This document shows positions 2,912-41,705 of a stretch of 64,000 nucleotides of DNA, one piece after another. The stretch's first letter is position 1, and each line of letters opens with the position of its first letter. The notes under the pieces were generated by a model, which was not told the DNA's origin, ran no database searches, and was given only the letters and a program-made list of their open reading frames with translations. Both the position numbers and the translations under genes were made by a program. The stretch lies in the sequence record DRR723986_8415, one strand, 5' to 3'.

Positions 2912-4456
2912 ATGAACCGAACCGTTAAAATTCACCTGCCTAGAATGTGTAATCCTCTGAGCAGCGCAATTCCGATATTGTTACTTTTGTCTCTCTGTTC
3001 ACTGGATGTTGTTTTCGCAAGCGATGTGATCGCTCAGCGACCAAACATTGTGTTGATCATCGCCGATGACATGAATTGGGACGATTGCGGTGCTTACGGG
3101 CATCCTGCCATTCGAACACCGAACATCGACCGAATGGCTGCTGAAGGCCTGTTGTTCCGCAACGCTTACTTGACGACCAACTCTTGTAGCCCTTCGCGAG
3201 CTAGCATCATCACCGGCAAGTACCCGCACAATACCGGCGCAGAACAACTGCATTGGCCGATCCCCGCTGGTACAAAGACGTTTGTAGCCGATTTGAAGAA
3301 TGCCGGTTACTACACGGCTGCTGCTGGAAAGTGGCACATGGGCGATTCGGTGCGGGACCATTTCGACAAAATCTATGAGGCGTCAACGGCCGGTTTTGTT
3401 CTGCCGTCAGGAAAAGACGGCGAGCCGCCGAAGATGATTGCGAAGCAACCTAGCGGATGCGAAGATTGGGAGCGTGCACTGGAAGAACGCGAGCCGGCCA
3501 AGCCGTTTTTTATGTGGCTAGCCGCCTTGGATCCGCATCGAGAGTACTCGCCCGGTGCCCTTGATCCGCCGCACAAATTGACAGACGTTATCGTTCCTCA
3601 ACATCTACCAGATACGCCTCAGGTCCGGGAGGATCTTAGGTTGTATTACGACGAAATTGGAAGGCTGGATGGATACGTCGGCAAAGTGCTTGACACATTG
3701 AAGCGTCAGAACGTAGACGACAACACTATTGTTGTGTTCATTAGTGACAACGGGCGGCCTTTCCCGCGTGACAAAACGACACTCTATGACGGCGGAATCC
3801 GCACGCCTTGGATCGTGCGGTGGCCCAGCAAAATCGCCGCTGGACAAACAACCGATGCACTCGTAAGTTCCGTTGATTTGGCTGCTACGTTTCTCGATGT
3901 TGCCCGTGTAGACGCCCCAGCTTCTGCAACTGACTCGAGCAAGAGCTTCACTCAAGTACTCGCGGATACCAATGCCGGTCACCGAGAGTTCGCGTTTGCT
4001 GAAGATCACTGGCACGACTACGAAGACCATGCTCGCAGTGTTATCAGCAAACAGTACAAATTGATTCGAAACGATTACGTTGACCTACCGCCAACGCCCT
4101 CTGCTGATGCAGGTCGCGGCTTAACTTGGCAGAACATGCTCACGCTTCAGAAAGCGGGACAACTTCCGAAACATCAGCAAAGCTGTTTCCTCGCTCCCCG
4201 CCAAACGTGGGAACTCTACGATCTGCAGCGAGATCCTGGCGAGCTTCGCAACTTGGCAACTGATCCCGCGTACGCAAACGTGCTCATGAAGATGAAGACG
4301 GCATTGTCGCAGTGGACGGACAACACTAGCGACTACATTCCAAGTGTCCGAACTCCTGATGAATTCGACCGCATCACTGGGGAGCCCGACCACACTGTGC
4401 GAGTTCGGCCGCGAAAATCGAAAAAGGAAATGTTCGGTACCAACGGCAAGTATTGA
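2912..4456 (+). CDS. Cys-type sulfatase (N-sulfoglucosamine sulfohydrolase-like)
   Basis: RPNIVLIIADD, CSPSR, GKWH, DPHR, SDNGRPFPRDK, ELYDLQRDPGE. Start uncertain (2855/2912/2945). Confidence 0.92.
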   Translation: MNRTVKIHLPRMCNPLSSAIPILLLLSLCSLDVVFASDVIAQRPNIVLIIADDMNWDDCGAYGHPAIRTPNIDRMAAEGLLFRNAYLTTNSCSPSRASIITGKYPHNTGAEQLHWPIPAGTKTFVADLKNAGYYTAAAGKWHMGDSVRDHFDKIYEASTAGFVLPSGKDGEPPKMIAKQPSGCEDWERALEEREPAKPFFMWLAALDPHREYSPGALDPPHKLTDVIVPQHLPDTPQVREDLRLYYDEIGRLDGYVGKVLDTLKRQNVDDNTIVVFISDNGRPFPRDKTTLYDGGIRTPWIVRWPSKIAAGQTTDALVSSVDLAATFLDVARVDAPASATDSSKSFTQVLADTNAGHREFAFAEDHWHDYEDHARSVISKQYKLIRNDYVDLPPTPSADAGRGLTWQNMLTLQKAGQLPKHQQSCFLAPRQTWELYDLQRDPGELRNLATDPAYANVLMKMKTALSQWTDNTSDYIPSVRTPDEFDRITGEPDHTVRVRPRKSKKEMFGTNGKY

Positions 4457-30986: not shown

Positions 30987-32147
30987 CTAGTCCTGGTCCA
31001 GATACATCCTGATGCGCTTTGCCAACAGGGCTGGAGGCAGGCCAACTGCCGCGTGAAAATCCTCGATCCGCTGTCTGGAAGTATACTCGCCGTATCCGCG
31101 CCGTTGTTGGAGCTCCGTGACTTTACGATATTGCTTTGGCATTTGCTGTGCCAGGAACTTTGTTAGTGCCCATGAGCCAGCGTAAGCGATCTGAGGGTCC
31201 TGCTGAAAGAGTTTGTCCGAGGCGATGAGACTACCGAGCAGATTTGCGGTCGCTTCGTCAGACTGCAAGACTCGATCCAGCGTGTGCAATTGGCGTCGTT
31301 CAAATTCGCTTGAACGCCCGTCGGGTGACTGAGGATCATATGTGTTAGGGCTTTCAAACATTGTCGCTAGGCCCTCGACGAACCAAAGCGGGTGTTCGAA
31401 TAGCCGCTCGTGCACGCCGGTGTTGTAGGCAAGTTGATGCACCGCCTCGTGAACGATGGTGGCTTCTGTCTCAGACCAATCTATCCGCTGGTTGTCTGAC
31501 AGACTAGGAAGCTCGTAAAGTGCGCACACATTCGTCTTTGCAAAGTAAGCCCCTATGGCACCAGCAGGGAGCACGCTCTGCTGGGACCGCGCAAATGCCT
31601 CAAACTCCGATTGAGTCCGAAACACAATGACTCGCAATGGAAAATCCGGTTCACGTATTTGCCATCCGCGCAGTGAGAAATACCTTACGAATCCACTGTA
31701 AAGTTTGCTGAATCGACGCCGCCAACGAACCGCATTTCCCTTGGACGCGGCGACAACGTAGTGCCCCGACTGTAGGACCTCAAAGCCCTGCCCCAGCTCA
31801 GCACGCAGCGAACTCTGCGCCTCCAGGGCCGATTCAGGACGAAACACTGTGTCCAACTTGGCAAGCTTTGTGATCTCCGACTGCTTAAAGAAATCCATCA
31901 CGCCGCTGGGGCGAAGTACCACGGCCGCTTCTTTGTCCCAGTGGATGGGCAGCCCCGCCGTGCTACCGCGCCTAGTCCGAACCAGCAAGGTTCGGTGGGT
32001 AGCGTCTGCGCCTGACTGATCTTCCGCACTTGCAGCCCTTGACTGATCCGCGGTCCGTCCAACCTGGCTTAGGACAACGGTTGGCGACAGCATTAGTGCA
32101 CCGATACAGGCAAGAACCACTTGCCTGAATTCAAAGCTGCGAGCCAT
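30987..32147 (-). CDS. DUF1570 domain protein (HExxH zincin-like)
   Basis: TIVHEAVHQLAYNTG, PLWFVEGLA, YAGSWAL. Start uncertain (ORF extends to 32291). Confidence 0.85.
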   Translation of the reverse strand: MARSFEFRQVVLACIGALMLSPTVVLSQVGRTADQSRAASAEDQSGADATHRTLLVRTRRGSTAGLPIHWDKEAAVVLRPSGVMDFFKQSEITKLAKLDTVFRPESALEAQSSLRAELGQGFEVLQSGHYVVAASKGNAVRWRRRFSKLYSGFVRYFSLRGWQIREPDFPLRVIVFRTQSEFEAFARSQQSVLPAGAIGAYFAKTNVCALYELPSLSDNQRIDWSETEATIVHEAVHQLAYNTGVHERLFEHPLWFVEGLATMFESPNTYDPQSPDGRSSEFERRQLHTLDRVLQSDEATANLLGSLIASDKLFQQDPQIAYAGSWALTKFLAQQMPKQYRKVTELQQRRGYGEYTSRQRIEDFHAAVGLPPALLAKRIRMYLDQD

Positions 32148-32410
32148 GTAAAAACTTGAGTGGGCAGATTCTGTGGCCATTGGACAGACTATCTCGTAAA
32201 CAGTTCGTTCACCGATGCAAATGAACGGACTTTCACTGGCAAGTGAGCCGTTCGCACTGAAACTTAGTTCAGTGCCCCGCCATCGGGACAAGTCTGATAC
32301 GATTAAGGGTGTTATGGCACGGCCGATTGTGCGACCTTTTCCGGTTTTGTCAGAACCACCTCAACCAGTAGCTGCGCCCCCTGGATTCGCCTAGCTCGAA
32401 GAACGACACG

Positions 32411-33739
32411 ATGAAGAACTTTATCTCTGAACAACCAACCTCGGTCACAGTCATCCTCGTTTCCTTTGTGTTGCTCGTGGGACCTGCCCGTTCGGCGATT
32501 GCCCAACAGTCTGAAGGCAGCGAACAAGCATCCTCGCCAAGCACTCAGACCACCGAGGCAGACCTTGCGGCAAAGCTGAAGGCACTATTAAACGACATGG
32601 ATAATGGCTCACTCGAGCAACGCGATGCCGCGGAGAAGTCGATAATCGAGCTCGGCTCTGCCGCAGCCCCGCTCCTACCGGAAGTCTCAGAAGACACCTC
32701 GGGCGAAATGAAGATCCGCCTCGAGAGGATTCGCTCGGCGATCGGTGGCGCACCGCAGGCTTCGTCCATCACTGCATCCAAGGTGAGTCTTTCGGGCAAA
32801 ATGTCCGCGACCAGTGCACTGCGAAAGATTGGAGAACAAACCGACAACACAATTGTTCTCGAGGGCGAAGGCGGGTCGACCGAAGTTGACCTCGACCTGA
32901 AGGACGCTGATTTTTGGGCGGCCGTTGGCGAAATCACCGCACAAGCAAACCTACAACTACAGGCCTATAGCTCTACCGAAGGCGAGTTGGTGCTAGCCCC
33001 TGCAGCCGAAGGTAACGCCTACAGCCTTAAGCCCAACAACTCGGGTGCATTTCGATTTGACTGCGTTACAGCTCAATCCCAAGCGTCGTTCAATAGCCCA
33101 CGAGGACTTCTCGAACTGAGTTGTTACGTTTCATGGGAGCCACGACTCAAGCCAGTTTCCGTGACGATTCCCATGCAGTCTATCACCGCGGTAACTGATT
33201 CTGGACAAACACTTCGAAGTATGAATCCCGGTGCAAGTCCTGCACTGGCGACCAACAACGGTGGGGCGACTACGATCTTCAACCTGCAGTTAGCGCGCCC
33301 TGATCGCAGTGAATCGACTCTTAAGAGCGTTGCTGGACAAGTCGTTTTTTCCGTTCCAGGTGAAGATCACGACTACCGGTTCAAAGATTTTGCCAGCGGT
33401 GTTCGGCAAAGCGAAAAATTCGGCAATGTAACCGTCACTCTAGCCAACTTCGGACGCAATGGGGCTGTCTACGAGGCCCGTTTGAGTGTCAATCTGGGAG
33501 CTAGCTCACAGAACCGAAACTGGCTCCTGTCTAACGAAGCGTACCTGGTTGATGCCAAAGAAACCAAAATCATGAACGTAGGGAAGCGGTATTTTCAAGG
33601 CGTCGCGAATAGCGCGAACTTCTCCTACCTTTTCCAGATCAACGGCGACCCTAAAGATTACGAACTTGTCTTCAGTCTACCGGGGACGTTTACCGAAGTG
33701 ACTGTGCCCTTTGAGCTGACGGATATCCCCCTTCCCTGA
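32411..33739 (+). CDS. secreted hypothetical protein (HEAT-like and STN-like N-terminal segments)
   Basis: 442-aa ORF with signal peptide, LNDMD...QRDAAEKSIIELG helical repeat, SWEPRL, and terminal ELTDIPLP. Confidence 0.8.
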   Translation: MKNFISEQPTSVTVILVSFVLLVGPARSAIAQQSEGSEQASSPSTQTTEADLAAKLKALLNDMDNGSLEQRDAAEKSIIELGSAAAPLLPEVSEDTSGEMKIRLERIRSAIGGAPQASSITASKVSLSGKMSATSALRKIGEQTDNTIVLEGEGGSTEVDLDLKDADFWAAVGEITAQANLQLQAYSSTEGELVLAPAAEGNAYSLKPNNSGAFRFDCVTAQSQASFNSPRGLLELSCYVSWEPRLKPVSVTIPMQSITAVTDSGQTLRSMNPGASPALATNNGGATTIFNLQLARPDRSESTLKSVAGQVVFSVPGEDHDYRFKDFASGVRQSEKFGNVTVTLANFGRNGAVYEARLSVNLGASSQNRNWLLSNEAYLVDAKETKIMNVGKRYFQGVANSANFSYLFQINGDPKDYELVFSLPGTFTEVTVPFELTDIPLP

Positions 33740-33756
33740 AACAGCCGTCTATACAA

Positions 33757-34203
33757 TCAATCGCATCGTTTCGTGTTCACCGCATGCAGGAATCGAGCGA
33801 CGGCGTTAGCCGAACCTCGTTCTTGGTTGTAGCGGAATTCTTCCTCCGCCAGAGCAAAACCTGCCCAGTCACTTTCCCACAATCGCAGAATCAACTGGGG
33901 CTTGTACACGCACCGAATTCGCCAACTATGGGTGTGCGATATCCTAACCCATGATCGAATCCACTTACGCAACTTGCGGTGCTGGCCAATCACATTGACG
34001 CTAAGGTTAAATGCATCTTCGTCCGGCTCGAGAGCGAATGCGTGACGTAGCGAGCAAAGGTAAACCTTTGCGTTGGCGCGGAACAATCTCGTACCGCTGC
34101 GTTTCTCGCACGCTCCCGGACCATATGGGCGCTCGGGCACAATATTGCCCACTAAGCACCAAACGGAACTCGGTCTCGCCGCGATTCTCACCTGACCATC
34201 CAT
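33757..34203 (-). CDS. hypothetical protein
   Basis: ORF containing WCLVGNIVPERPYGPG...GTRLF...AKVY. Start inferred at ATG 34203. Confidence 0.6.
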   Translation of the reverse strand: MDGQVRIAARPSSVWCLVGNIVPERPYGPGACEKRSGTRLFRANAKVYLCSLRHAFALEPDEDAFNLSVNVIGQHRKLRKWIRSWVRISHTHSWRIRCVYKPQLILRLWESDWAGFALAEEEFRYNQERGSANAVARFLHAVNTKRCD

Positions 34204-34465
34204 CACCGACTTGAAGTTCCTTCGAGAGCCTTGTGCGCATCTGACGAACAGGACTGGTATTTTCTGCAGTCGGTTCACGCATGTGCCGTCCGCCGCAGAA
34301 CGGGATGGAGCTTTGAAGTTACCCCACCCAGTTGGGCACTTTGGTCGCAAACCCAGAGAGGGGCAGATGTTAGACTCTTGGCGAATCTAGTGTTTTGTCG
34401 CACTCTTGAATTGTTTTTTGCTCAATTTGCAACTTGCTTCGCCCTAACTGGGATGCATATTAAAG

Positions 34466-34631
34466 TGTTCAACGAACGATGAACAACTGCCCCGCAGGTT
34501 GCTGCCCCGATCTGCATGTTTCTCGATTCGATGAACGAACATTCTGTTCGCTTCGGTAAGATGCTGCCCCGTCTGATCGATAGCAATAGAAGTTAGGCTG
34601 AGCCCTTTGGTTTCGACCAGAGGGCTTTTTT
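34466..34631 (+). ncRNA. candidate multi-hairpin small RNA with three CUGCCCC motifs
   Basis: Two hairpins with identical GCTGCCCC loops (34501-34508, 34563-34570), a third motif at 34487-34493, G-U pairs only valid on the + strand, an own terminator, and a TTGCTT...TATTAA promoter-like pair upstream. Both flanking genes are on the minus strand. Confidence 0.65.
34601..34631 (+). terminator. intrinsic terminator with UUCG tetraloop
   Basis: AGCCCTTTGGT-TTCG-ACCAGAGGGCT followed by a T-run to 34631. Confidence 0.85.
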
Positions 34632-34679
34632 AATGCGCTGATGGGGCATCATCAAATGAGCGCCACCCGAGCCAGCCTG

Positions 34680-35069
34680 CTACTGCTTTCGCTCCATCCA
34701 AACGATCTTTGCGGGAGCTTCGTCCTTGTAGGCGGCCAACGTGCCGGGGCGATAGGAAACGACAACGCCGAAGTATGCAGCTCGGAGAATGTTGGCGGCT
34801 GCTGAGACGGAGACAACCCTGCCGTCATATTTGTCTTCACAAGCTACGATATAACATAACTCTTCGTCAGATGGGATCGAAAGCGTTGGCGCGTCGCAAA
34901 CGTAACGTTCGTCAAGATCTCCCATGAAACGATGGTTCAAACGATCAAGGAATGCACCGCGTTTCTTATGTGATGACAACTGCGATCGATAACGTTCTCG
35001 TCTATCGCGAATAATGAACGAGTCGATCAGTGCTGTCTCGTGTTCGGTAGCAAAGTCTTCTGTCGTCAC
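34680..35069 (-). CDS. hypothetical protein
   Basis: About 129 aa from GTG 35069, with HETALIDSFI..DRRERY...KKR..FLDRLNH pattern. ORF extends to 35201. Confidence 0.65.
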   Translation of the reverse strand: MTTEDFATEHETALIDSFIIRDRRERYRSQLSSHKKRGAFLDRLNHRFMGDLDERYVCDAPTLSIPSDEELCYIVACEDKYDGRVVSVSAAANILRAAYFGVVVSYRPGTLAAYKDEAPAKIVWMERKQ

Positions 35070-35265
35070 GTGGATGCCATTATTCGCACAAATAGGTTCT
35101 TCAGAATCGGTCCGCGCGAACCAGGAACTAGCTTCGTCTAACGCTGAGGATACCAAGCAAATTGAGACAGGACAATAATTTGGTCGTGGCCAACTAAGCA
35201 CCTGGGGCGTGCTTGGCGAAGTGCTTAGGGAGACATGGGTGAATGCAGGCGTCCTGGACTGGAGC

Positions 35266-37230
35266 CTAAATGTAATCCCAAAGCGTAAGACGAGTGGACT
35301 GTCCCATAAGCTGCAGAGACGCTTGAAGGGCGGCTTGCCTGGCGTTCAAATCTGAAATCGTCTGCGCAAGATCGGCGTCGAGTTCGTCTGATTCCGCTTC
35401 GGTGAGACGGATCTGTTGTTCGGCAGAAAGATCCAGCATCGATTCGACAGATTGTTGCCGAGCTCCGAGGAATCCACGCGTCAAGGAAAGTCGCTGGATG
35501 TCGTCTTCGATCGCAGCGGCCACCCGTTCCATGTTTTCTGGGCGTCCCGATTCGATGGCCTCGCGTAAACGGATGAGCGTATTGAATGCTCCCTCAACCT
35601 CAATGCCGCTGACATCCGATCCGGAGATTGTTGATCCACCGGCTGTTGGGCTGCCCGTCGAAACTGCCTCTCCAGGCGGTACAAGGCCAAGGTCCCAGGC
35701 TGCCTGCGATCCGCCGGCGTTGGCGACTGTGATCGGCTGCGCTCCAGATTGGGCTTGAAGTGTGATACCGTTGCCCGTGCTGGCAAGTGATGCGGTGATA
35801 CGAAGTGTAGGTGTTTGGTTGTCGACGTTGTTGTTGATCCGGTCCAGCACGTCCGACACCGATTGCACGCCCGATAAATCAATGCGCAGTTGACTACCGT
35901 TGGTCCGTGTGAGAACAATGTCGTCCCCCGCCGAGTTGGTCGAAATGCCGCGTCCAAAATTCAGCGACGCAATTGGCGTATCGATATCGAACGATCGCAC
36001 TCCCAATTGTGAGGCCAAGTCAGAGCCATTTTCGCCGATCGACAGGGTTGACCCGCTTTCGGTACTTTGGATTGCAAAGTTGCGGCCTGTCTCGTCGAGG
36101 GTTACGTCAACTGCTGCACCAGATAGGCGGATCTGGTTCATGAAGTCTTCAACGGTCTCAAGGTTGGCCGTCGTGATAATGTAGTCATTGGGGCCTTGCG
36201 AAAGCAAAAACGAATCCGGTTGGGGGAGCCCTGCCCCACCGAACAACTGGCTCAGTCGAGTCGACTCGGTGACGACGGGATCAAGATCGCCGCCAGAAAC
36301 CGGACTAAGCCCCGTCGTATTGCCGTTGTTGATTCCAAGATCTCCGGCCATGTTCCCCGTGCCAACTTCCCCAATTCGCAGCAATCCAGGCAGGGCGTCA
36401 GAGTATTGGATATTGATTCCATTGCTGGACAGCGAAACACTCAGGTCGCGACCGCCCAGTGACACGGTGTCGAGTTTTTCGGTTATGTCGGAGATGTTGT
36501 ACGCAGTGGAAAGGTCTAGTTCGACAACTTCTACTCCGTTGCTGAGCGTTATTGCCCCACTCCGCACGCCCGCTCCGCGATTCAATTGATCCAAGGGGGT
36601 ATCCGGCGCGATCGCGGCGTTCAAGTCCACTGAGCCTATCTCGCGACTTGAACGAACGCCAAAGGCATCTTGGCTAGTCACATTGGCTGAGATCGTCGCC
36701 CCGTAATCGGAGATGGTTCGCAGTTGTTCATCATTGCCGTCAAAACGGACGGTTTCGCCATCGAAAGTGATTGGTGACTCGCGGAGGTCACTGCCAGCGA
36801 AAATGAACTGGTCTCGAAACTTTGAATTGCTCAGTTGAAGTAGGTTGTTTAAGCCCGATTGCACTTGTTGCGAAAGAGCGTCTATTTCGGCTTCGGAAAG
36901 CGTCGTACCTGTGCCCGAAACGGCGACTCCCCGCATTTCGATCAGCAACGACTGAGCCTGGGCCAAAGTAGCTTCGGTGGCAGAAAGGATCGTATCTGCT
37001 GATCCTAGGTTGTCGTCGACTTGTTCCTTGAACTCTTTGCCGCGTTGGGCGGCCAACGCTCGAATTGCGGCACCTGGATCCTCGCTTGGGCGAGTGAGTT
37101 TTCTGCCGGTGCTGAGCTGTTGCTGGAGCTCTTGAATGGCAGATTCGTCGTTGTTGATCTGGAAGAGTAGACGCGAAATGCCTAACTGAGTCGTGGCTCT
37201 ATTGCCAACTGAAGGGTAGAAGCTTGTCAT
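35266..37230 (-). CDS. flgL: flagellar hook-associated protein 3 (extended, 654 aa)
   Basis: QLSTGRKL..PSEDP, N.KFRDQFIFAG, C-terminal DADLAQTI...ALQASL...LTLWDYI. Lies downstream of flgK. Confidence 0.92.
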   Translation of the reverse strand: MTSFYPSVGNRATTQLGISRLLFQINNDESAIQELQQQLSTGRKLTRPSEDPGAAIRALAAQRGKEFKEQVDDNLGSADTILSATEATLAQAQSLLIEMRGVAVSGTGTTLSEAEIDALSQQVQSGLNNLLQLSNSKFRDQFIFAGSDLRESPITFDGETVRFDGNDEQLRTISDYGATISANVTSQDAFGVRSSREIGSVDLNAAIAPDTPLDQLNRGAGVRSGAITLSNGVEVVELDLSTAYNISDITEKLDTVSLGGRDLSVSLSSNGINIQYSDALPGLLRIGEVGTGNMAGDLGINNGNTTGLSPVSGGDLDPVVTESTRLSQLFGGAGLPQPDSFLLSQGPNDYIITTANLETVEDFMNQIRLSGAAVDVTLDETGRNFAIQSTESGSTLSIGENGSDLASQLGVRSFDIDTPIASLNFGRGISTNSAGDDIVLTRTNGSQLRIDLSGVQSVSDVLDRINNNVDNQTPTLRITASLASTGNGITLQAQSGAQPITVANAGGSQAAWDLGLVPPGEAVSTGSPTAGGSTISGSDVSGIEVEGAFNTLIRLREAIESGRPENMERVAAAIEDDIQRLSLTRGFLGARQQSVESMLDLSAEQQIRLTEAESDELDADLAQTISDLNARQAALQASLQLMGQSTRLTLWDYI

Positions 37231-37362
37231 CAGTTACTGCCTGCTGGGTGCGTGTCGAATGCGATGGCAATCACACTGTGTTGCATCCGATGATTTGTTG
37301 GGTCATTCTGCCGCGTATGAGTGAGCGGATAATACGATGTTCTTTGGGAGTGTTTGCGGGCT

Positions 37363-39060
37363 CTACAAATTCACAAGCACGTCTAACATTTCGGATGCTG
37401 CCTGAATCAGTCTACTGTTTGCCTGGTAGGCCCGTTGATAAAAAATCATCTTCACAGCTTCCTCGTCCAAGTTGACACCAGATGCACTTAGGTGTTGTGA
37501 TTCGAGGTTGCGGTAAAAATTTCGCAGTCCATCGGAAACGCCCTTCTCGACATTGATATCCTGCGAAGTCTTGACGACGATATCCTCATAAGCTTGCTTG
37601 ATAGATCGTCCTCCAAGGCTTTCAATCGGATTGTCGAATGCCTCAGCTAGTTTCAATGCATTTTCAGTGCCGCTGCCAACGCCCGTTCCACTCGCGGCAA
37701 ACTTCCGCGGGTCATCGGCAATTGTCGGGTTCAGATCAATGGTCCGGGCCGAGTTGCCAACGAAAAATGTATTGATTCCAGCGGCGGCAAGAAAGTTTGA
37801 GGAGTCGTTTTGGAACGAAAAACGAAGCCGCTCGGTGTCGGATTCGATCCGCAATTTTCCATCAGCGGTTAGCGAGGCTGAAAGTCCAGAGACTGCATTG
37901 AGGTCACTACTGATATCGGCAAGCGTCGTGTCGTCGATACCGCCTTGCAGTTTTACTCGGATGGTATGCGTTTCCGTGATTCCGCTGGGCAAATCGGTGA
38001 CTTGCACCTGAAACTCGCCGTTTTGGACATTTACGGGCAATCCAGCAATATCCACGGGGGCCAGTGGATCATCGGACCCAAAGGTTCCCTCTACCAATTC
38101 AAAGCCCTCGAGTCCTTGGCCCTGAGAGTGAATCAAGTTGAACTGCGTAACCAGGTCGTTTGCGAATGCGTCTAGATCCTGCAACGTAGATCCGATGGCG
38201 GTGTCTCGCGCGGCGTAGAGCCCTGCCAAACGCCCTGCACTCACCTCCAGCGGCGCGTCAGTGTCTGCCAGTCTGACCTCTGGAGCTGGCGGATCTCGAT
38301 CACCGTCGAGAGCAAACGTGACGGGACGGTGGATACCGTCCGCAACAAGGTACTCTCCGCCAACGAATACTGTTACTGATCCACTCGTTTGTTCTACGGA
38401 TCGGATGTCTACAATCTGCGAAAGCTCTTGAAGTCGCTGATAGCGTTCGTCTCGAAGCCCGACAGCGTCAGAAGTTCCGATCTCACCGCCCTCAAGTTCT
38501 ACAATTCGAACGTTTAGCTTTGCGATCGACTCGGTCAGGCGATTGATCTCGCCCGCAGCAGATTGGATCTCTCCATTCAGGTTGCTACCGAGTTCTCCGA
38601 GTTGTTGGCCAACTTGCCGAATGTTCGAGGACAGGAGTTTCGCGCGTTCCAAAACCAGTCGCCGAAGCGAGTCGTTGCCGGGCTGATTGAGAACATCGTT
38701 GATGCTGTCGGAGAACTCCGAAATTTGGCTACTGAGATCGTTATCTGTTAGTTCGCCCAGGATGGCTTCAATTTGGTCATAGATTCCCGATTTGACGTCG
38801 CTTGCCGCGAGTTCACTTTCCGTTTGCCGAAGGCGCTCAAGGACGAATTCATCCAGGTTCTGAACGACGCCAACTGCACGAACGCCGCTGCCAAGAATCA
38901 GGTCGCCGCGTCGCGTTGAAACGCCAGGCGTTTGAATGAGCTCCTGCCGAATATAGCCCGGGGTATTCGCGTTGGCGATATTGTTGCCGACGACATGCAG
39001 TCCAAGTTCATTGACTTGGAGAGCGTTTGCAGACTGTTGTATGGATGAAAAGAGTGACAT
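37363..39060 (-). CDS. flgK: flagellar hook-associated protein 1
   Basis: GNNIANANTPGYIRQ, GSGV, SGVNLDEE, QRAYQANSRLI. Confidence 0.95.
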   Translation of the reverse strand: MSLFSSIQQSANALQVNELGLHVVGNNIANANTPGYIRQELIQTPGVSTRRGDLILGSGVRAVGVVQNLDEFVLERLRQTESELAASDVKSGIYDQIEAILGELTDNDLSSQISEFSDSINDVLNQPGNDSLRRLVLERAKLLSSNIRQVGQQLGELGSNLNGEIQSAAGEINRLTESIAKLNVRIVELEGGEIGTSDAVGLRDERYQRLQELSQIVDIRSVEQTSGSVTVFVGGEYLVADGIHRPVTFALDGDRDPPAPEVRLADTDAPLEVSAGRLAGLYAARDTAIGSTLQDLDAFANDLVTQFNLIHSQGQGLEGFELVEGTFGSDDPLAPVDIAGLPVNVQNGEFQVQVTDLPSGITETHTIRVKLQGGIDDTTLADISSDLNAVSGLSASLTADGKLRIESDTERLRFSFQNDSSNFLAAAGINTFFVGNSARTIDLNPTIADDPRKFAASGTGVGSGTENALKLAEAFDNPIESLGGRSIKQAYEDIVVKTSQDINVEKGVSDGLRNFYRNLESQHLSASGVNLDEEAVKMIFYQRAYQANSRLIQAASEMLDVLVNL

Positions 39061-39098
39061 TCATTTTGCCCCAAGTTTGTACACAAACTTTTACCGAA

Positions 39099-39590
39099 CT
39101 ACGACTGTGTGTTCAGCAGTCGTCCGCTCGCCGGTGCAGTTTTGCGCTTTCTAGAATAGACGTTGGGGCTTGATTTTCCGTTCGTGATCAAACGAATCAC
39201 GTCATTGGTGTGTTGCAACGATTGGTGTACGGTGACCCAAATTGCAAAGTGGAGTCGCCGAACGTAAGAAGTCTTTACTTGGGATTCGTTGACGCGTCTG
39301 CGGAGTTCCGTTTTTCGGTTCCCAGGCGTGATGTCGACGAGTGACTTCAAATTTGTTGCGCGTAGGCCCAGGCCTGTAGCCTGCTGAAGAATGGCTTGCC
39401 GCTGACTGACGATATGCTCGAGATCCTTCATCAATTGCGGTGACTGCGATTGGATCTCAGCTATGGCCGCAGGGCTACTTTCGAACGTTAGCTTTTCGAC
39501 TTCCTGCAACCAATCGATCCATCCGTCGACGACGCTATCCAATCGATCAAGGTACTCGCCAATCACTTTACTTAGATCTGTCGCTTGCAT
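39099..39590 (-). CDS. flgN: FlgN-like flagellar export chaperone
   Basis: 163-aa helical protein directly upstream of flgK with a C-terminal Y...G.LLN pattern. Call rests mainly on synteny. Confidence 0.6.
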   Translation of the reverse strand: MQATDLSKVIGEYLDRLDSVVDGWIDWLQEVEKLTFESSPAAIAEIQSQSPQLMKDLEHIVSQRQAILQQATGLGLRATNLKSLVDITPGNRKTELRRRVNESQVKTSYVRRLHFAIWVTVHQSLQHTNDVIRLITNGKSSPNVYSRKRKTAPASGRLLNTQS

Positions 39591-40976: not shown

Positions 40977-41705
40977 ATGCAAGTTGGGCTCTCCCCAAAG
41001 CAATTCTCGATTGCTGGGGTAGTGATCGGCGGACCGGTCTTGTGCTGTCTGCTCGTGCTTTATTTCACCGTCGAACAATCAAGCACTTTGCAATTGCTCT
41101 TTAGTGCTGCCGTGATTCTCTTCTCGGTGGTGTTTGTATCCGAGATCCTTGTGCGGCGATTGCCTACGGCACTCAATGAGCTGGCGGAGAACAATTGCTT
41201 TCGCATGAACGGCGAAAAATCGAAACGCCGGATTGCCCAAGAGCTGAAGGCGAAGGGCAAGGTGCGTCGCGATTTTTGGGCAATTGGGATAGCCGCTGCG
41301 GCGCTATGGTGCGGAGTTGCGTTTGCGTTCCACAATTACTTCGTTCCTATCCCAGTGGCTATTCGTGGGTTGCTGGCAGTTGACGGAGACTCAGGTAGTT
41401 TGGTGCAGTCGCTGCGGGACGCGGGCATCGAACGAGACGTTGAATCGTCTGTGCAACGCACCTATGGTGGTGGGCCCAAGAGCGCGGCTGAGAAAACGAG
41501 AACGCTTTGGTCGTTAACTCCGTTCATCGCTACGGCACTGGTTGTCGCCGGAGTGCTTACAGTCGTGGGCGTAAACACTGGCTATCGGCTGGCCTTAGAA
41601 GAATATCGCCGCGGCTTGATCGCTCGACAGAAAATGCATGTCGATCGTGATATACGACATCTACAGAACAGTGAACTACGTCAAGAAACCGCTTCTGTTA
41701 CATGA
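40977..41705 (+). CDS. hypothetical membrane protein
   Basis: 242 aa with about four hydrophobic segments. Confidence 0.7.
   Translation: MQVGLSPKQFSIAGVVIGGPVLCCLLVLYFTVEQSSTLQLLFSAAVILFSVVFVSEILVRRLPTALNELAENNCFRMNGEKSKRRIAQELKAKGKVRRDFWAIGIAAAALWCGVAFAFHNYFVPIPVAIRGLLAVDGDSGSLVQSLRDAGIERDVESSVQRTYGGGPKSAAEKTRTLWSLTPFIATALVVAGVLTVVGVNTGYRLALEEYRRGLIARQKMHVDRDIRHLQNSELRQETASVT

Follow-up and report, generated by a model that had tools for sequence, protein, structure and literature searches.

A predicted small RNA gene with repeated C-rich loops in a planctomycete and its sister species

Introduction

The cuckoo (alpha-r14-type) sRNAs of Alphaproteobacteria are built from several hairpins that repeat one C-rich loop motif, an anti-Shine-Dalgarno sequence of the CCUCCUCCC type, and these RNAs are multi-copy. 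In CsrB and RsmZ, a short motif is repeated in the loops and linkers of a terminator-ended sRNA. GGA is the established recognition core of CsrA, and known protein sponges usually carry more than three sites. The 6C sRNA of Actinobacteria is a small structured RNA in which one C-rich sequence recurs across hairpin loops; its published account states that the C-rich loops directly bind several mRNAs in a chaperone-free manner, and proposes that the G-C-rich pairing is independent of Hfq or ProQ (PMC6486639). Concerning the Rsa sRNAs of Bacillota, the unpaired UCCC motif of RsaE is reported to block formation of the initiation complex, and most Rsa RNAs in that study have the motif in common (PMC2790875). 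As for the planctomycetes themselves, a table in a 2022 review gives 345 distinct sRNA families for Proteobacteria and 8 for the PVC group as a whole (PMC9029176), and Rhodopirellula-1, a candidate motif from Proteobacteria and Planctomycetes, is listed in a 2010 survey without an Rfam accession (Weinberg et al. 2010, PMC2864571). Our searches of the literature turned up neither a described planctomycete sRNA nor a CUGCCCC motif in bacterial use.

Here we analyse an element in a stretch of 64,000 nucleotides from sequence record DRR723986_8415 (the window), and compare it with its single homologue in an incomplete draft genome of a sister species (G375). With 6C the element shares the small structured form and the repetition of one C-rich sequence across hairpin loops. 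It comes from a different phylum, has no sequence or structure homology to 6C (no Rfam match at E up to 10), and differs in its motif (CUGCCCC), a third, single-stranded motif copy, a length of about 165 nt and a long third hairpin; its targets are candidates. Repeated unpaired C-rich motifs and an intrinsic terminator are likewise found in RsaE/RoxS and the other UCCC-bearing Rsa sRNAs, and the likeness would extend to Hfq independence and to action at the ribosome-binding sites of several mRNAs, both of which are predictions for the element. By Rfam the two are not homologous, and the motifs of the RsaE/RoxS type pair with G-rich Shine-Dalgarno sequences generally. The 7-8-nt motif of the element is not complementary to AAGGAGG-type sites, and a narrower set of targets would therefore be expected. 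A preliminary description of the element, made from the window alone, had compared it with the cuckoo family. The comparison holds for the architecture, several hairpins repeating one C-rich loop motif, but not for the motif, which is not anti-Shine-Dalgarno (G375 uses AAGGA, AGGAG and GGAGG); the CCUCCUCCC-type sequence is absent, there is no Rfam match, and the element is single-copy in both the window and G375. Unlike CsrB/RsmZ, to which it bears the likeness of a short motif repeated in loops and linkers of a terminator-ended RNA, the window RNA has just three repeats, no GGA and no Rfam match.

Results

Genomic context

The window DNA comes from a planctomycete of the Pirellulaceae. The top matches of its FlgK among named records were Pirellulaceae and Aureliella metagenome-assembled genomes, at 58-68% identity. 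The element occupies the gap between two minus-strand ORFs (Table 1) and is thus antisense to both neighbours, as had been noted in the preliminary description. Of 41 genus genomes, two contain a match to residues 45-170 of the 173-aa flanking ORF and one a match to residues 58-173 of the 197-aa ORF; for neither ORF was a homologue found in G375. The element is surrounded by accessory genes, and the spot looks prone to rearrangement. The 442-aa protein encoded upstream is conserved in 39 of the 41 genus genomes, and its gene is the sole neighbour still linked to the element in G375. The flgN-flgK-flgL cluster, 0.6 kb from the element in the window, is not part of this linkage: in G375, flgKL are on a different contig from the element, and that contig continues into unrelated sequence.

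Table 1. Features of the element and its surroundings in the window
Feature	Position	Strand	Remarks
DUF1570 protein gene	30987-32291	-	Divergent from 442-aa gene
442-aa protein gene	32411-33739	+	N-terminal hydrophobic signal-like segment; no family assignment
Flanking ORF	33757-34350	-	No Pfam or NCBIfam family
Conserved promoter-like block	34418-34463	+	From alignment with G375
Promoter-like hexamers	TTGCTT 34434-34439; TATTAA 34458-34463	+	Inside conserved block
Predicted small RNA, about 165 nt	34464-34632	+	Fold, G375 homologue, no coding signal, no Rfam match
Hairpin 1, UGUUC(A)/(U)GAACA	34466-34485	+	Arms TGTTCA 34466-34471, TGAACA 34480-34485
Motif copy 1, ACTGCCCC (RNA ACUGCCCC)	34486-34493	+	Linker or internal loop; invariant in G375
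Hairpin 2, GCAGGTT[GCTGCCCC]GATCTGC	34494-34515	+	8-bp stem; motif copy 2 (GCUGCCCC; hexaloop CUGCCC)
Small hairpin CGAACA-TTC-TGTTCG	34536-34550	+	Overlaps 5' strand of long hairpin 3
Long hairpin 3, about 21-23 pairs	34538-34594	+	Motif copy 3 (GCUGCCCC; hexaloop CUGCCC)
Intrinsic terminator	34600-34631	+	12-bp stem, UUCG loop, U-tract; hairpin 34600-34627; same hairpin called in G375
Flanking ORF	34680-35201	-	No Pfam or NCBIfam family
flgL-like	35266-37230	-	Flagellar cluster 35266-39590
flgK	37363-39060	-	Flagellar cluster 35266-39590
flgN-like	39099-39590	-	Flagellar cluster 35266-39590
CsrA-family gene, 69 aa	46049-46258	-	About 80% identical to one G375 copy

Anatomy of the predicted RNA

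Every feature of the element listed in the preliminary description was recovered at its position, base for base. The promoter-like block opens with 23 nt that do not differ between the two species (TTGCTCAATTTGCAACTTGCTTC, 34418-34440), followed by a variable spacer of 12 nt and a conserved ATGCATATT. The two promoter-like hexamers that had been pointed out are indeed present inside this block, but they are weak, and a sigma-70 consensus scan calls neither; the type of promoter and the exact 5' end are therefore predictions, the latter to within about 5 nt. Judged against the sigma-54 consensus, the spacing and the GG element do not fit a promoter of that class. The 3' end of the predicted RNA was placed at the U-tract.

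As for the five hairpins originally proposed, four stand. The small hairpin CGAACA/TGTTCG competes with the base of the longer stem, has its sequence replaced in G375, and is absent from the minimum free energy (MFE) and consensus structures. The apical part of hairpin 3, TCGGTAAGAT[GCTGCCCC]GTCTGATCGA, spans 34553-34580. For hairpin 1, an inverted repeat in the DNA where transcription starts is an alternative reading.

Motif copies, folding and strand

The sequence CUGCCCCG occurs three times within 85 nt, all copies largely unpaired. The copies are 15 and 62 nt apart and sit on unrelated stems. The octamer CTGCCCCG has 6 copies in the 64-kb window, where 1.96 are expected; none of 100 shuffles had as many, and three of these six copies are those of the element (34487, 34502 and 34564). 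Across the window, the bare hexamer TGCCCC shows no enrichment (35 copies where 27.2 are expected, a number equalled or passed in 9 of 100 shuffles). A fourth copy of CTGCCCCG, at 2904-2911, abuts the start codon (ATG) of the sulfatase gene at 2912-4456 (+); being in the sense orientation, it is not a target site.

The + strand of 34464-34632 folds with -63.6 kcal/mol and a z-score of -5.30, with none of 200 shuffles as good, and with the terminator removed the z-score is -3.33 (0/200). For the minus strand, the z-score is -2.24, and 7 of 200 shuffles do as well. The body of the G375 RNA without its terminator reaches a fold z-score of only -1.80. The U-tract that follows the terminator stem is present on the + strand only. 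G-U pairs, U-tract and z-scores all point to the + strand, the orientation that had been assigned from the G-U pairs, and the sequence and z-scores bear out the initial picture of an unannotated multi-hairpin RNA presenting identical C-rich loops on different stems. The loops of motif copies 2 and 3 have a probability of being unpaired of at least 0.91 in both species, 1.00 in the case of the copy 3 loop. Copy 1 is at 0.76-0.99 in the window RNA and partly paired in the G375 model (0.09-0.98).

A homologue in the sister species

The homologue, G375:C177:233-400(-), is 82% identical to the window RNA. G375 represents a sister species, its FlgK being 89% and its 442-aa protein 78% identical to those of the window; the runner-up genus homologue of the latter protein is 48% identical. 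The block of 82% identity extends over 34418-34630: it begins with the promoter-like region and ends with the last U of the terminator, and beyond it the flanks cannot be aligned. Nucleotide identity is lower in the 442-aa gene (74%) and in flgKL (72%). In the window 680 nt separate the 442-aa gene from the element, in G375 170 nt; this spacer is not alignable, and the right-hand neighbours of the element are not the same in the two. Since the flanks are unalignable, the neighbouring minus-strand ORFs are missing from G375 and flgKL are located elsewhere, the conserved unit is the promoter-like block, the structure and the terminator, independent of the right-hand neighbours.

Contigs from read archives covered all or part of the unit in two near-identical strains (X1 and X2), and there was a further contig (X3) that matches 34418-34630 only and whose loose ends are the G375 flanks. 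The X1 contig (34272-34632) has 3 differences from the window, all before 34369. The X2 contig (33700-34527) has 18, and the 17 listed are all at or before 34389. No listed difference in these close strains thus falls inside the unit, against about 2.4% in the flank.

The preliminary description had taken loops that are not conserved in homologues as grounds for refuting its proposal. None of the three motif copies, neither the two in loops nor the single-stranded one, differs between the window and G375, and the stems change in a pair-preserving manner: in the motif hairpins and the terminator, pairing is kept through 2 compensatory and 5 one-sided changes. Hairpin 2, folded from the window alone, keeps 8/8 pairs in G375, with G34498-U changed to A-U. 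Hairpin 3 of the window-only MFE keeps 22/23, with 4 one-sided and 2 compensatory changes, and the terminator 12/12, with one U-G replaced by C-G. This amounts to 42 of 43 pairs preserved in hairpins 2 and 3 and the terminator together. In hairpin 1, all 5 stem pairs are invariant and the loop sequence differs. A long-range helix in the window MFE has 8 of its 18 pairs broken in G375 and is probably not real. The RNAalifold consensus consists of local hairpin 1, hairpin 2, long hairpin 3 and the terminator. Covariation on this consensus was not significant, 121 of 500 shuffles doing as well; with just two distinct sequences from two sister species, the covariation test has no statistical force.

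The element is non-coding in its pattern of change. Differences between the window and G375 are spread over the three codon phases as 13/13/11, with no three-base periodicity. In every one of the six frames, amino-acid identity (0.69-0.74) falls below nucleotide identity (0.82), and non-synonymous codon differences (13-15) outnumber synonymous ones (2-5). A small protein is unlikely, as the frames are less conserved as protein than as DNA and show no codon periodicity.

Distribution and known families

The element is very narrowly distributed, being confined to two sister species. Blastn recovered it in 1 of 151 relatives, together with two fragments of 24-36 nt; at the genus level it was found in 1 of 49 genomes (G375) and not in the other 48. 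A covariance model built from the window and G375 sequences gave, in the 151 relatives, seven weak matches beyond G375, of which five were terminator-like and two coding-like, none with the motif. Applied to 29 loci that follow the orthologous 442-aa gene, the same model had 0 matches; a motif cluster was found there in 0/29 and a strict terminator in 1/29. None of 76 flgK-synteny loci, a set that left out G375, contained a homologue of the element or a TGCCCC cluster. The three-motif pattern was matched in 45 of 401 family genomes; G375 contained the sole homologue among the matches listed, and the remainder were tandem repeats. An order-level pattern search of 401 genomes allowing 2 mismatches added one match, in apparent coding sequence. 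In metagenomes, the pattern occurred in at least 119 stretches; blastn likeness to the element was found in 0/119, and those inspected were tandem or coding repeats. Plasmid and phage collections contained no match to the element.

Two observations were made alongside these searches. Several Pirellulaceae genomes (for example G376, G319, G207, G387 and G124) contain long tandem arrays built from related 14-nt units such as CTGCCCCCATCATT and CTGCCCCCATCGTT, with up to 64 pattern matches per genome; the arrays have the C-rich core of the element and are otherwise unrelated to it. Within G375, look-alikes of the promoter block with at most 3 mismatches numbered 2 extra against about 0.35 expected by rough arithmetic, one inside apparent coding sequence and one intergenic, neither followed by a similar RNA. 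The first 14 bases of an intergenic-looking stretch, L314 1501-1620 (G375:C2:7146-7265, +), are identical to the upstream block (TTGCTCAATTTGCA). They are followed by a CCUCC-rich run (CACCUCCCCACAAGAUCCACCUCCACC) and then by a CCCUCC/GGAGGG hairpin, and the stretch may be another small RNA with an anti-Shine-Dalgarno-like sequence.

Comparison with Rfam had been proposed as a check of novelty, and no known family matched either at gathering scores or at E up to 10. The scan covered 6C, RsaE/RoxS, cuckoo-type and all other 4227 models. With cmscan, the whole window gave only tRNA at gathering scores, and 34300-34750 (451 bases) at E up to 10 gave only a chance alignment of mir-136 to the terminator (14.7 against a 64-bit cut-off).

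Several other classes of element were considered and rejected. The targets of ANTAR proteins are dual hexaloops with an A1/G4 loop signature; the present loops do not have this signature, and the hairpins are about 50 nt apart. A riboswitch or leader does not fit a locus with no + strand gene downstream and a convergent next gene. A cis-antisense RNA would overlap its neighbours; here there is no overlap, and the neighbours are absent from G375. For a type III toxin-antitoxin RNA, neither tandem repeats nor a linked toxin gene kept in G375 were found.

Candidate targets

Candidate targets in G375 were sought in a sample of about 0.8 Mb of 6.2 Mb, with start codons from a crude ORF caller. The pentamers enriched upstream of 531 predicted G375 genes were AAGGA, AGGAG, GGAGA and GGAGG. 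CUGCCCC is not complementary to the canonical Shine-Dalgarno sequences of G375, and as the motif is not a general anti-Shine-Dalgarno sequence, a specific regulon would be expected rather than global masking of ribosome-binding sites.

In the window the flgK leader has GGGGCA at -12; that of G375 has GGGCAG at -11, and the two leaders are otherwise diverged. GGGGCA is also found 5' of flgK in a further locus (L015), GGGCAG about 20 nt upstream in another (L010), and AGGCAG in a third (L007). The longest perfect complement to the RNA in the G375 sample is 11 nt, lies exactly on loop 3, and corresponds to positions -12 to -2 of the GMP synthase gene (guaA). This length was not significant, as 85 of 200 shuffled RNAs reach or exceed 11 nt. 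GGGGCAG was found near 3 of 575 predicted G375 starts, which ranks 2 of 42 permutations and is a count equalled by Shine-Dalgarno-like permutations. A site upstream of a 242-aa gene at 40977 in the window is absent from its G375 orthologue, and RNAduplex over all candidate window starts was too noisy for use. All of these genes are thus only putative targets.

Discussion

It is credible that the element is a genuine small regulatory RNA gene, which would represent a new and very narrow sRNA family of known architecture. We consider the chances about even that it is a gene in its own right, coding for a trans-acting sRNA that uses its C-rich loops to pair with G-rich sites at ribosome-binding sites. 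Transcription of the + strand would be driven by its own upstream block, which is conserved, and would give an RNA of about 165 nt ended by the intrinsic terminator. Three accessible CUGCCCC(G) copies, one in a linker and two in hexaloops, would serve as redundant seeds, a role suggested by the match in anatomy to sRNAs of the 6C/RsaE type with repeated unpaired C-rich sequences. By pairing with GGGGCAG-like sites in or near the ribosome-binding sites of particular mRNAs, the seeds would give short G-C-rich duplexes that block initiation or alter mRNA stability. Taking into account the G-C content of the duplexes, a chaperone of the Hfq type would probably be unneeded. We found no Hfq-family match in G375, an incomplete draft genome, which fits chaperone-independent G-C pairing. 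From the sequence we infer transcription, the 5' end, base-pairing action and targets.

A different use of the same anatomy would be titration of a protein, with the identical motifs acting as sites for an RNA-binding protein that is sequestered as CsrA is by the GGA motifs of CsrB/RsmZ. The length of the identity between the motifs (8-9 nt, A/GCUGCCCCG), which exceeds that of a minimal C-rich seed, their position on unrelated stems at different spacings (15 and 62 nt), the missing Hfq match in G375 and the want of a significant mRNA target signal are all consistent with such a sponge. So is the lineage, which is rich in CsrA: the CsrA complement of G375 is unusually large, with eight CsrA-family matches over the Pfam cut-off, several of them within longer open frames (136-285 aa), and one 69-aa copy is encoded in the window. 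But GGA occurs 0 times in the 169-nt window RNA, and the four occurrences in the G375 RNA are at non-conserved positions, so that this is not a canonical CsrA sponge. Moreover, no protein is known to bind the motif, and there are three sites only. We regard titration as unlikely on balance, and its more specific form, a decoy offering three C-rich sites to an RNA-binding protein, possibly a diverged CsrA paralogue with a non-GGA recognition code, as very improbable. The element might also be the 3' end of the 442-aa secreted-protein gene, a 3' UTR with terminator that acts in cis or is processed into an sRNA. The two have the same orientation, and no other synteny is kept in G375; the hexamers of the promoter-like block are weak, and, as no terminator-like site separates gene and element in either species, read-through or processing from this gene is possible. 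Against this, 680 nt and a minus-strand ORF intervene in the window and 170 nt in G375, and 28 of 29 orthologous genus genes have no such terminator or motif cluster downstream. The 23-nt block and ATGCATATT are conserved just upstream of the RNA, as expected of a promoter, and together with a spacer that is unalignable and variable in length they argue for a promoter of its own. We give an origin as a 3'-end element a low probability.

The conservation itself could reflect something other than a functional RNA, for example a DNA element such as operator-like inverted repeats, a stretch too young to have diverged, or hairpins clustered by chance next to a terminator. The occurrence in two sister species only, with no counterpart in 48 other genus genomes, and the statistically empty covariation leave room for this, and by rough arithmetic the chance that any 8-mer occurs thrice in 85 nt within 64 kb is roughly 4%. 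Yet conservation exceeds that of the flanking genes and ends at the edges of promoter and terminator, substitutions avoid the motifs and preserve pairing (42/43), the two close strains have no listed difference inside the unit against about 2.4% in the flank, and folding is strongly asymmetric between strands. On these grounds we judge the absence of a functional RNA to be decidedly improbable. As for a minus-strand gene for a small protein, both species have two frames on that strand that stay open over most of the element, but their amino-acid identity of 0.69-0.74 is below the nucleotide identity of 0.82, non-synonymous differences exceed synonymous ones without three-base periodicity, and the only starts are TTG and an internal ATG, neither with GGAG or AGGA upstream. 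This makes a protein extremely improbable.

With the trans-acting sRNA as the preferred reading, the element would be best filed as a new, lineage-restricted sRNA family, set apart from the Rfam models; Rhodopirellula-1 lies outside Rfam. Its value is limited by the distribution in two species and by an ordinary architecture of the 6C/RsaE type. The regulatory RNAs of Planctomycetota are almost unexplored, and the lineage is apparently without Hfq. If the decoy reading were true, the element would be one half of a sponge-protein pair with a non-GGA recognition code. If expressed, the RNA would provide a compact test case for post-transcriptional control in a planctomycete in whose sister no Hfq was found and eight CsrA-family genes are present.
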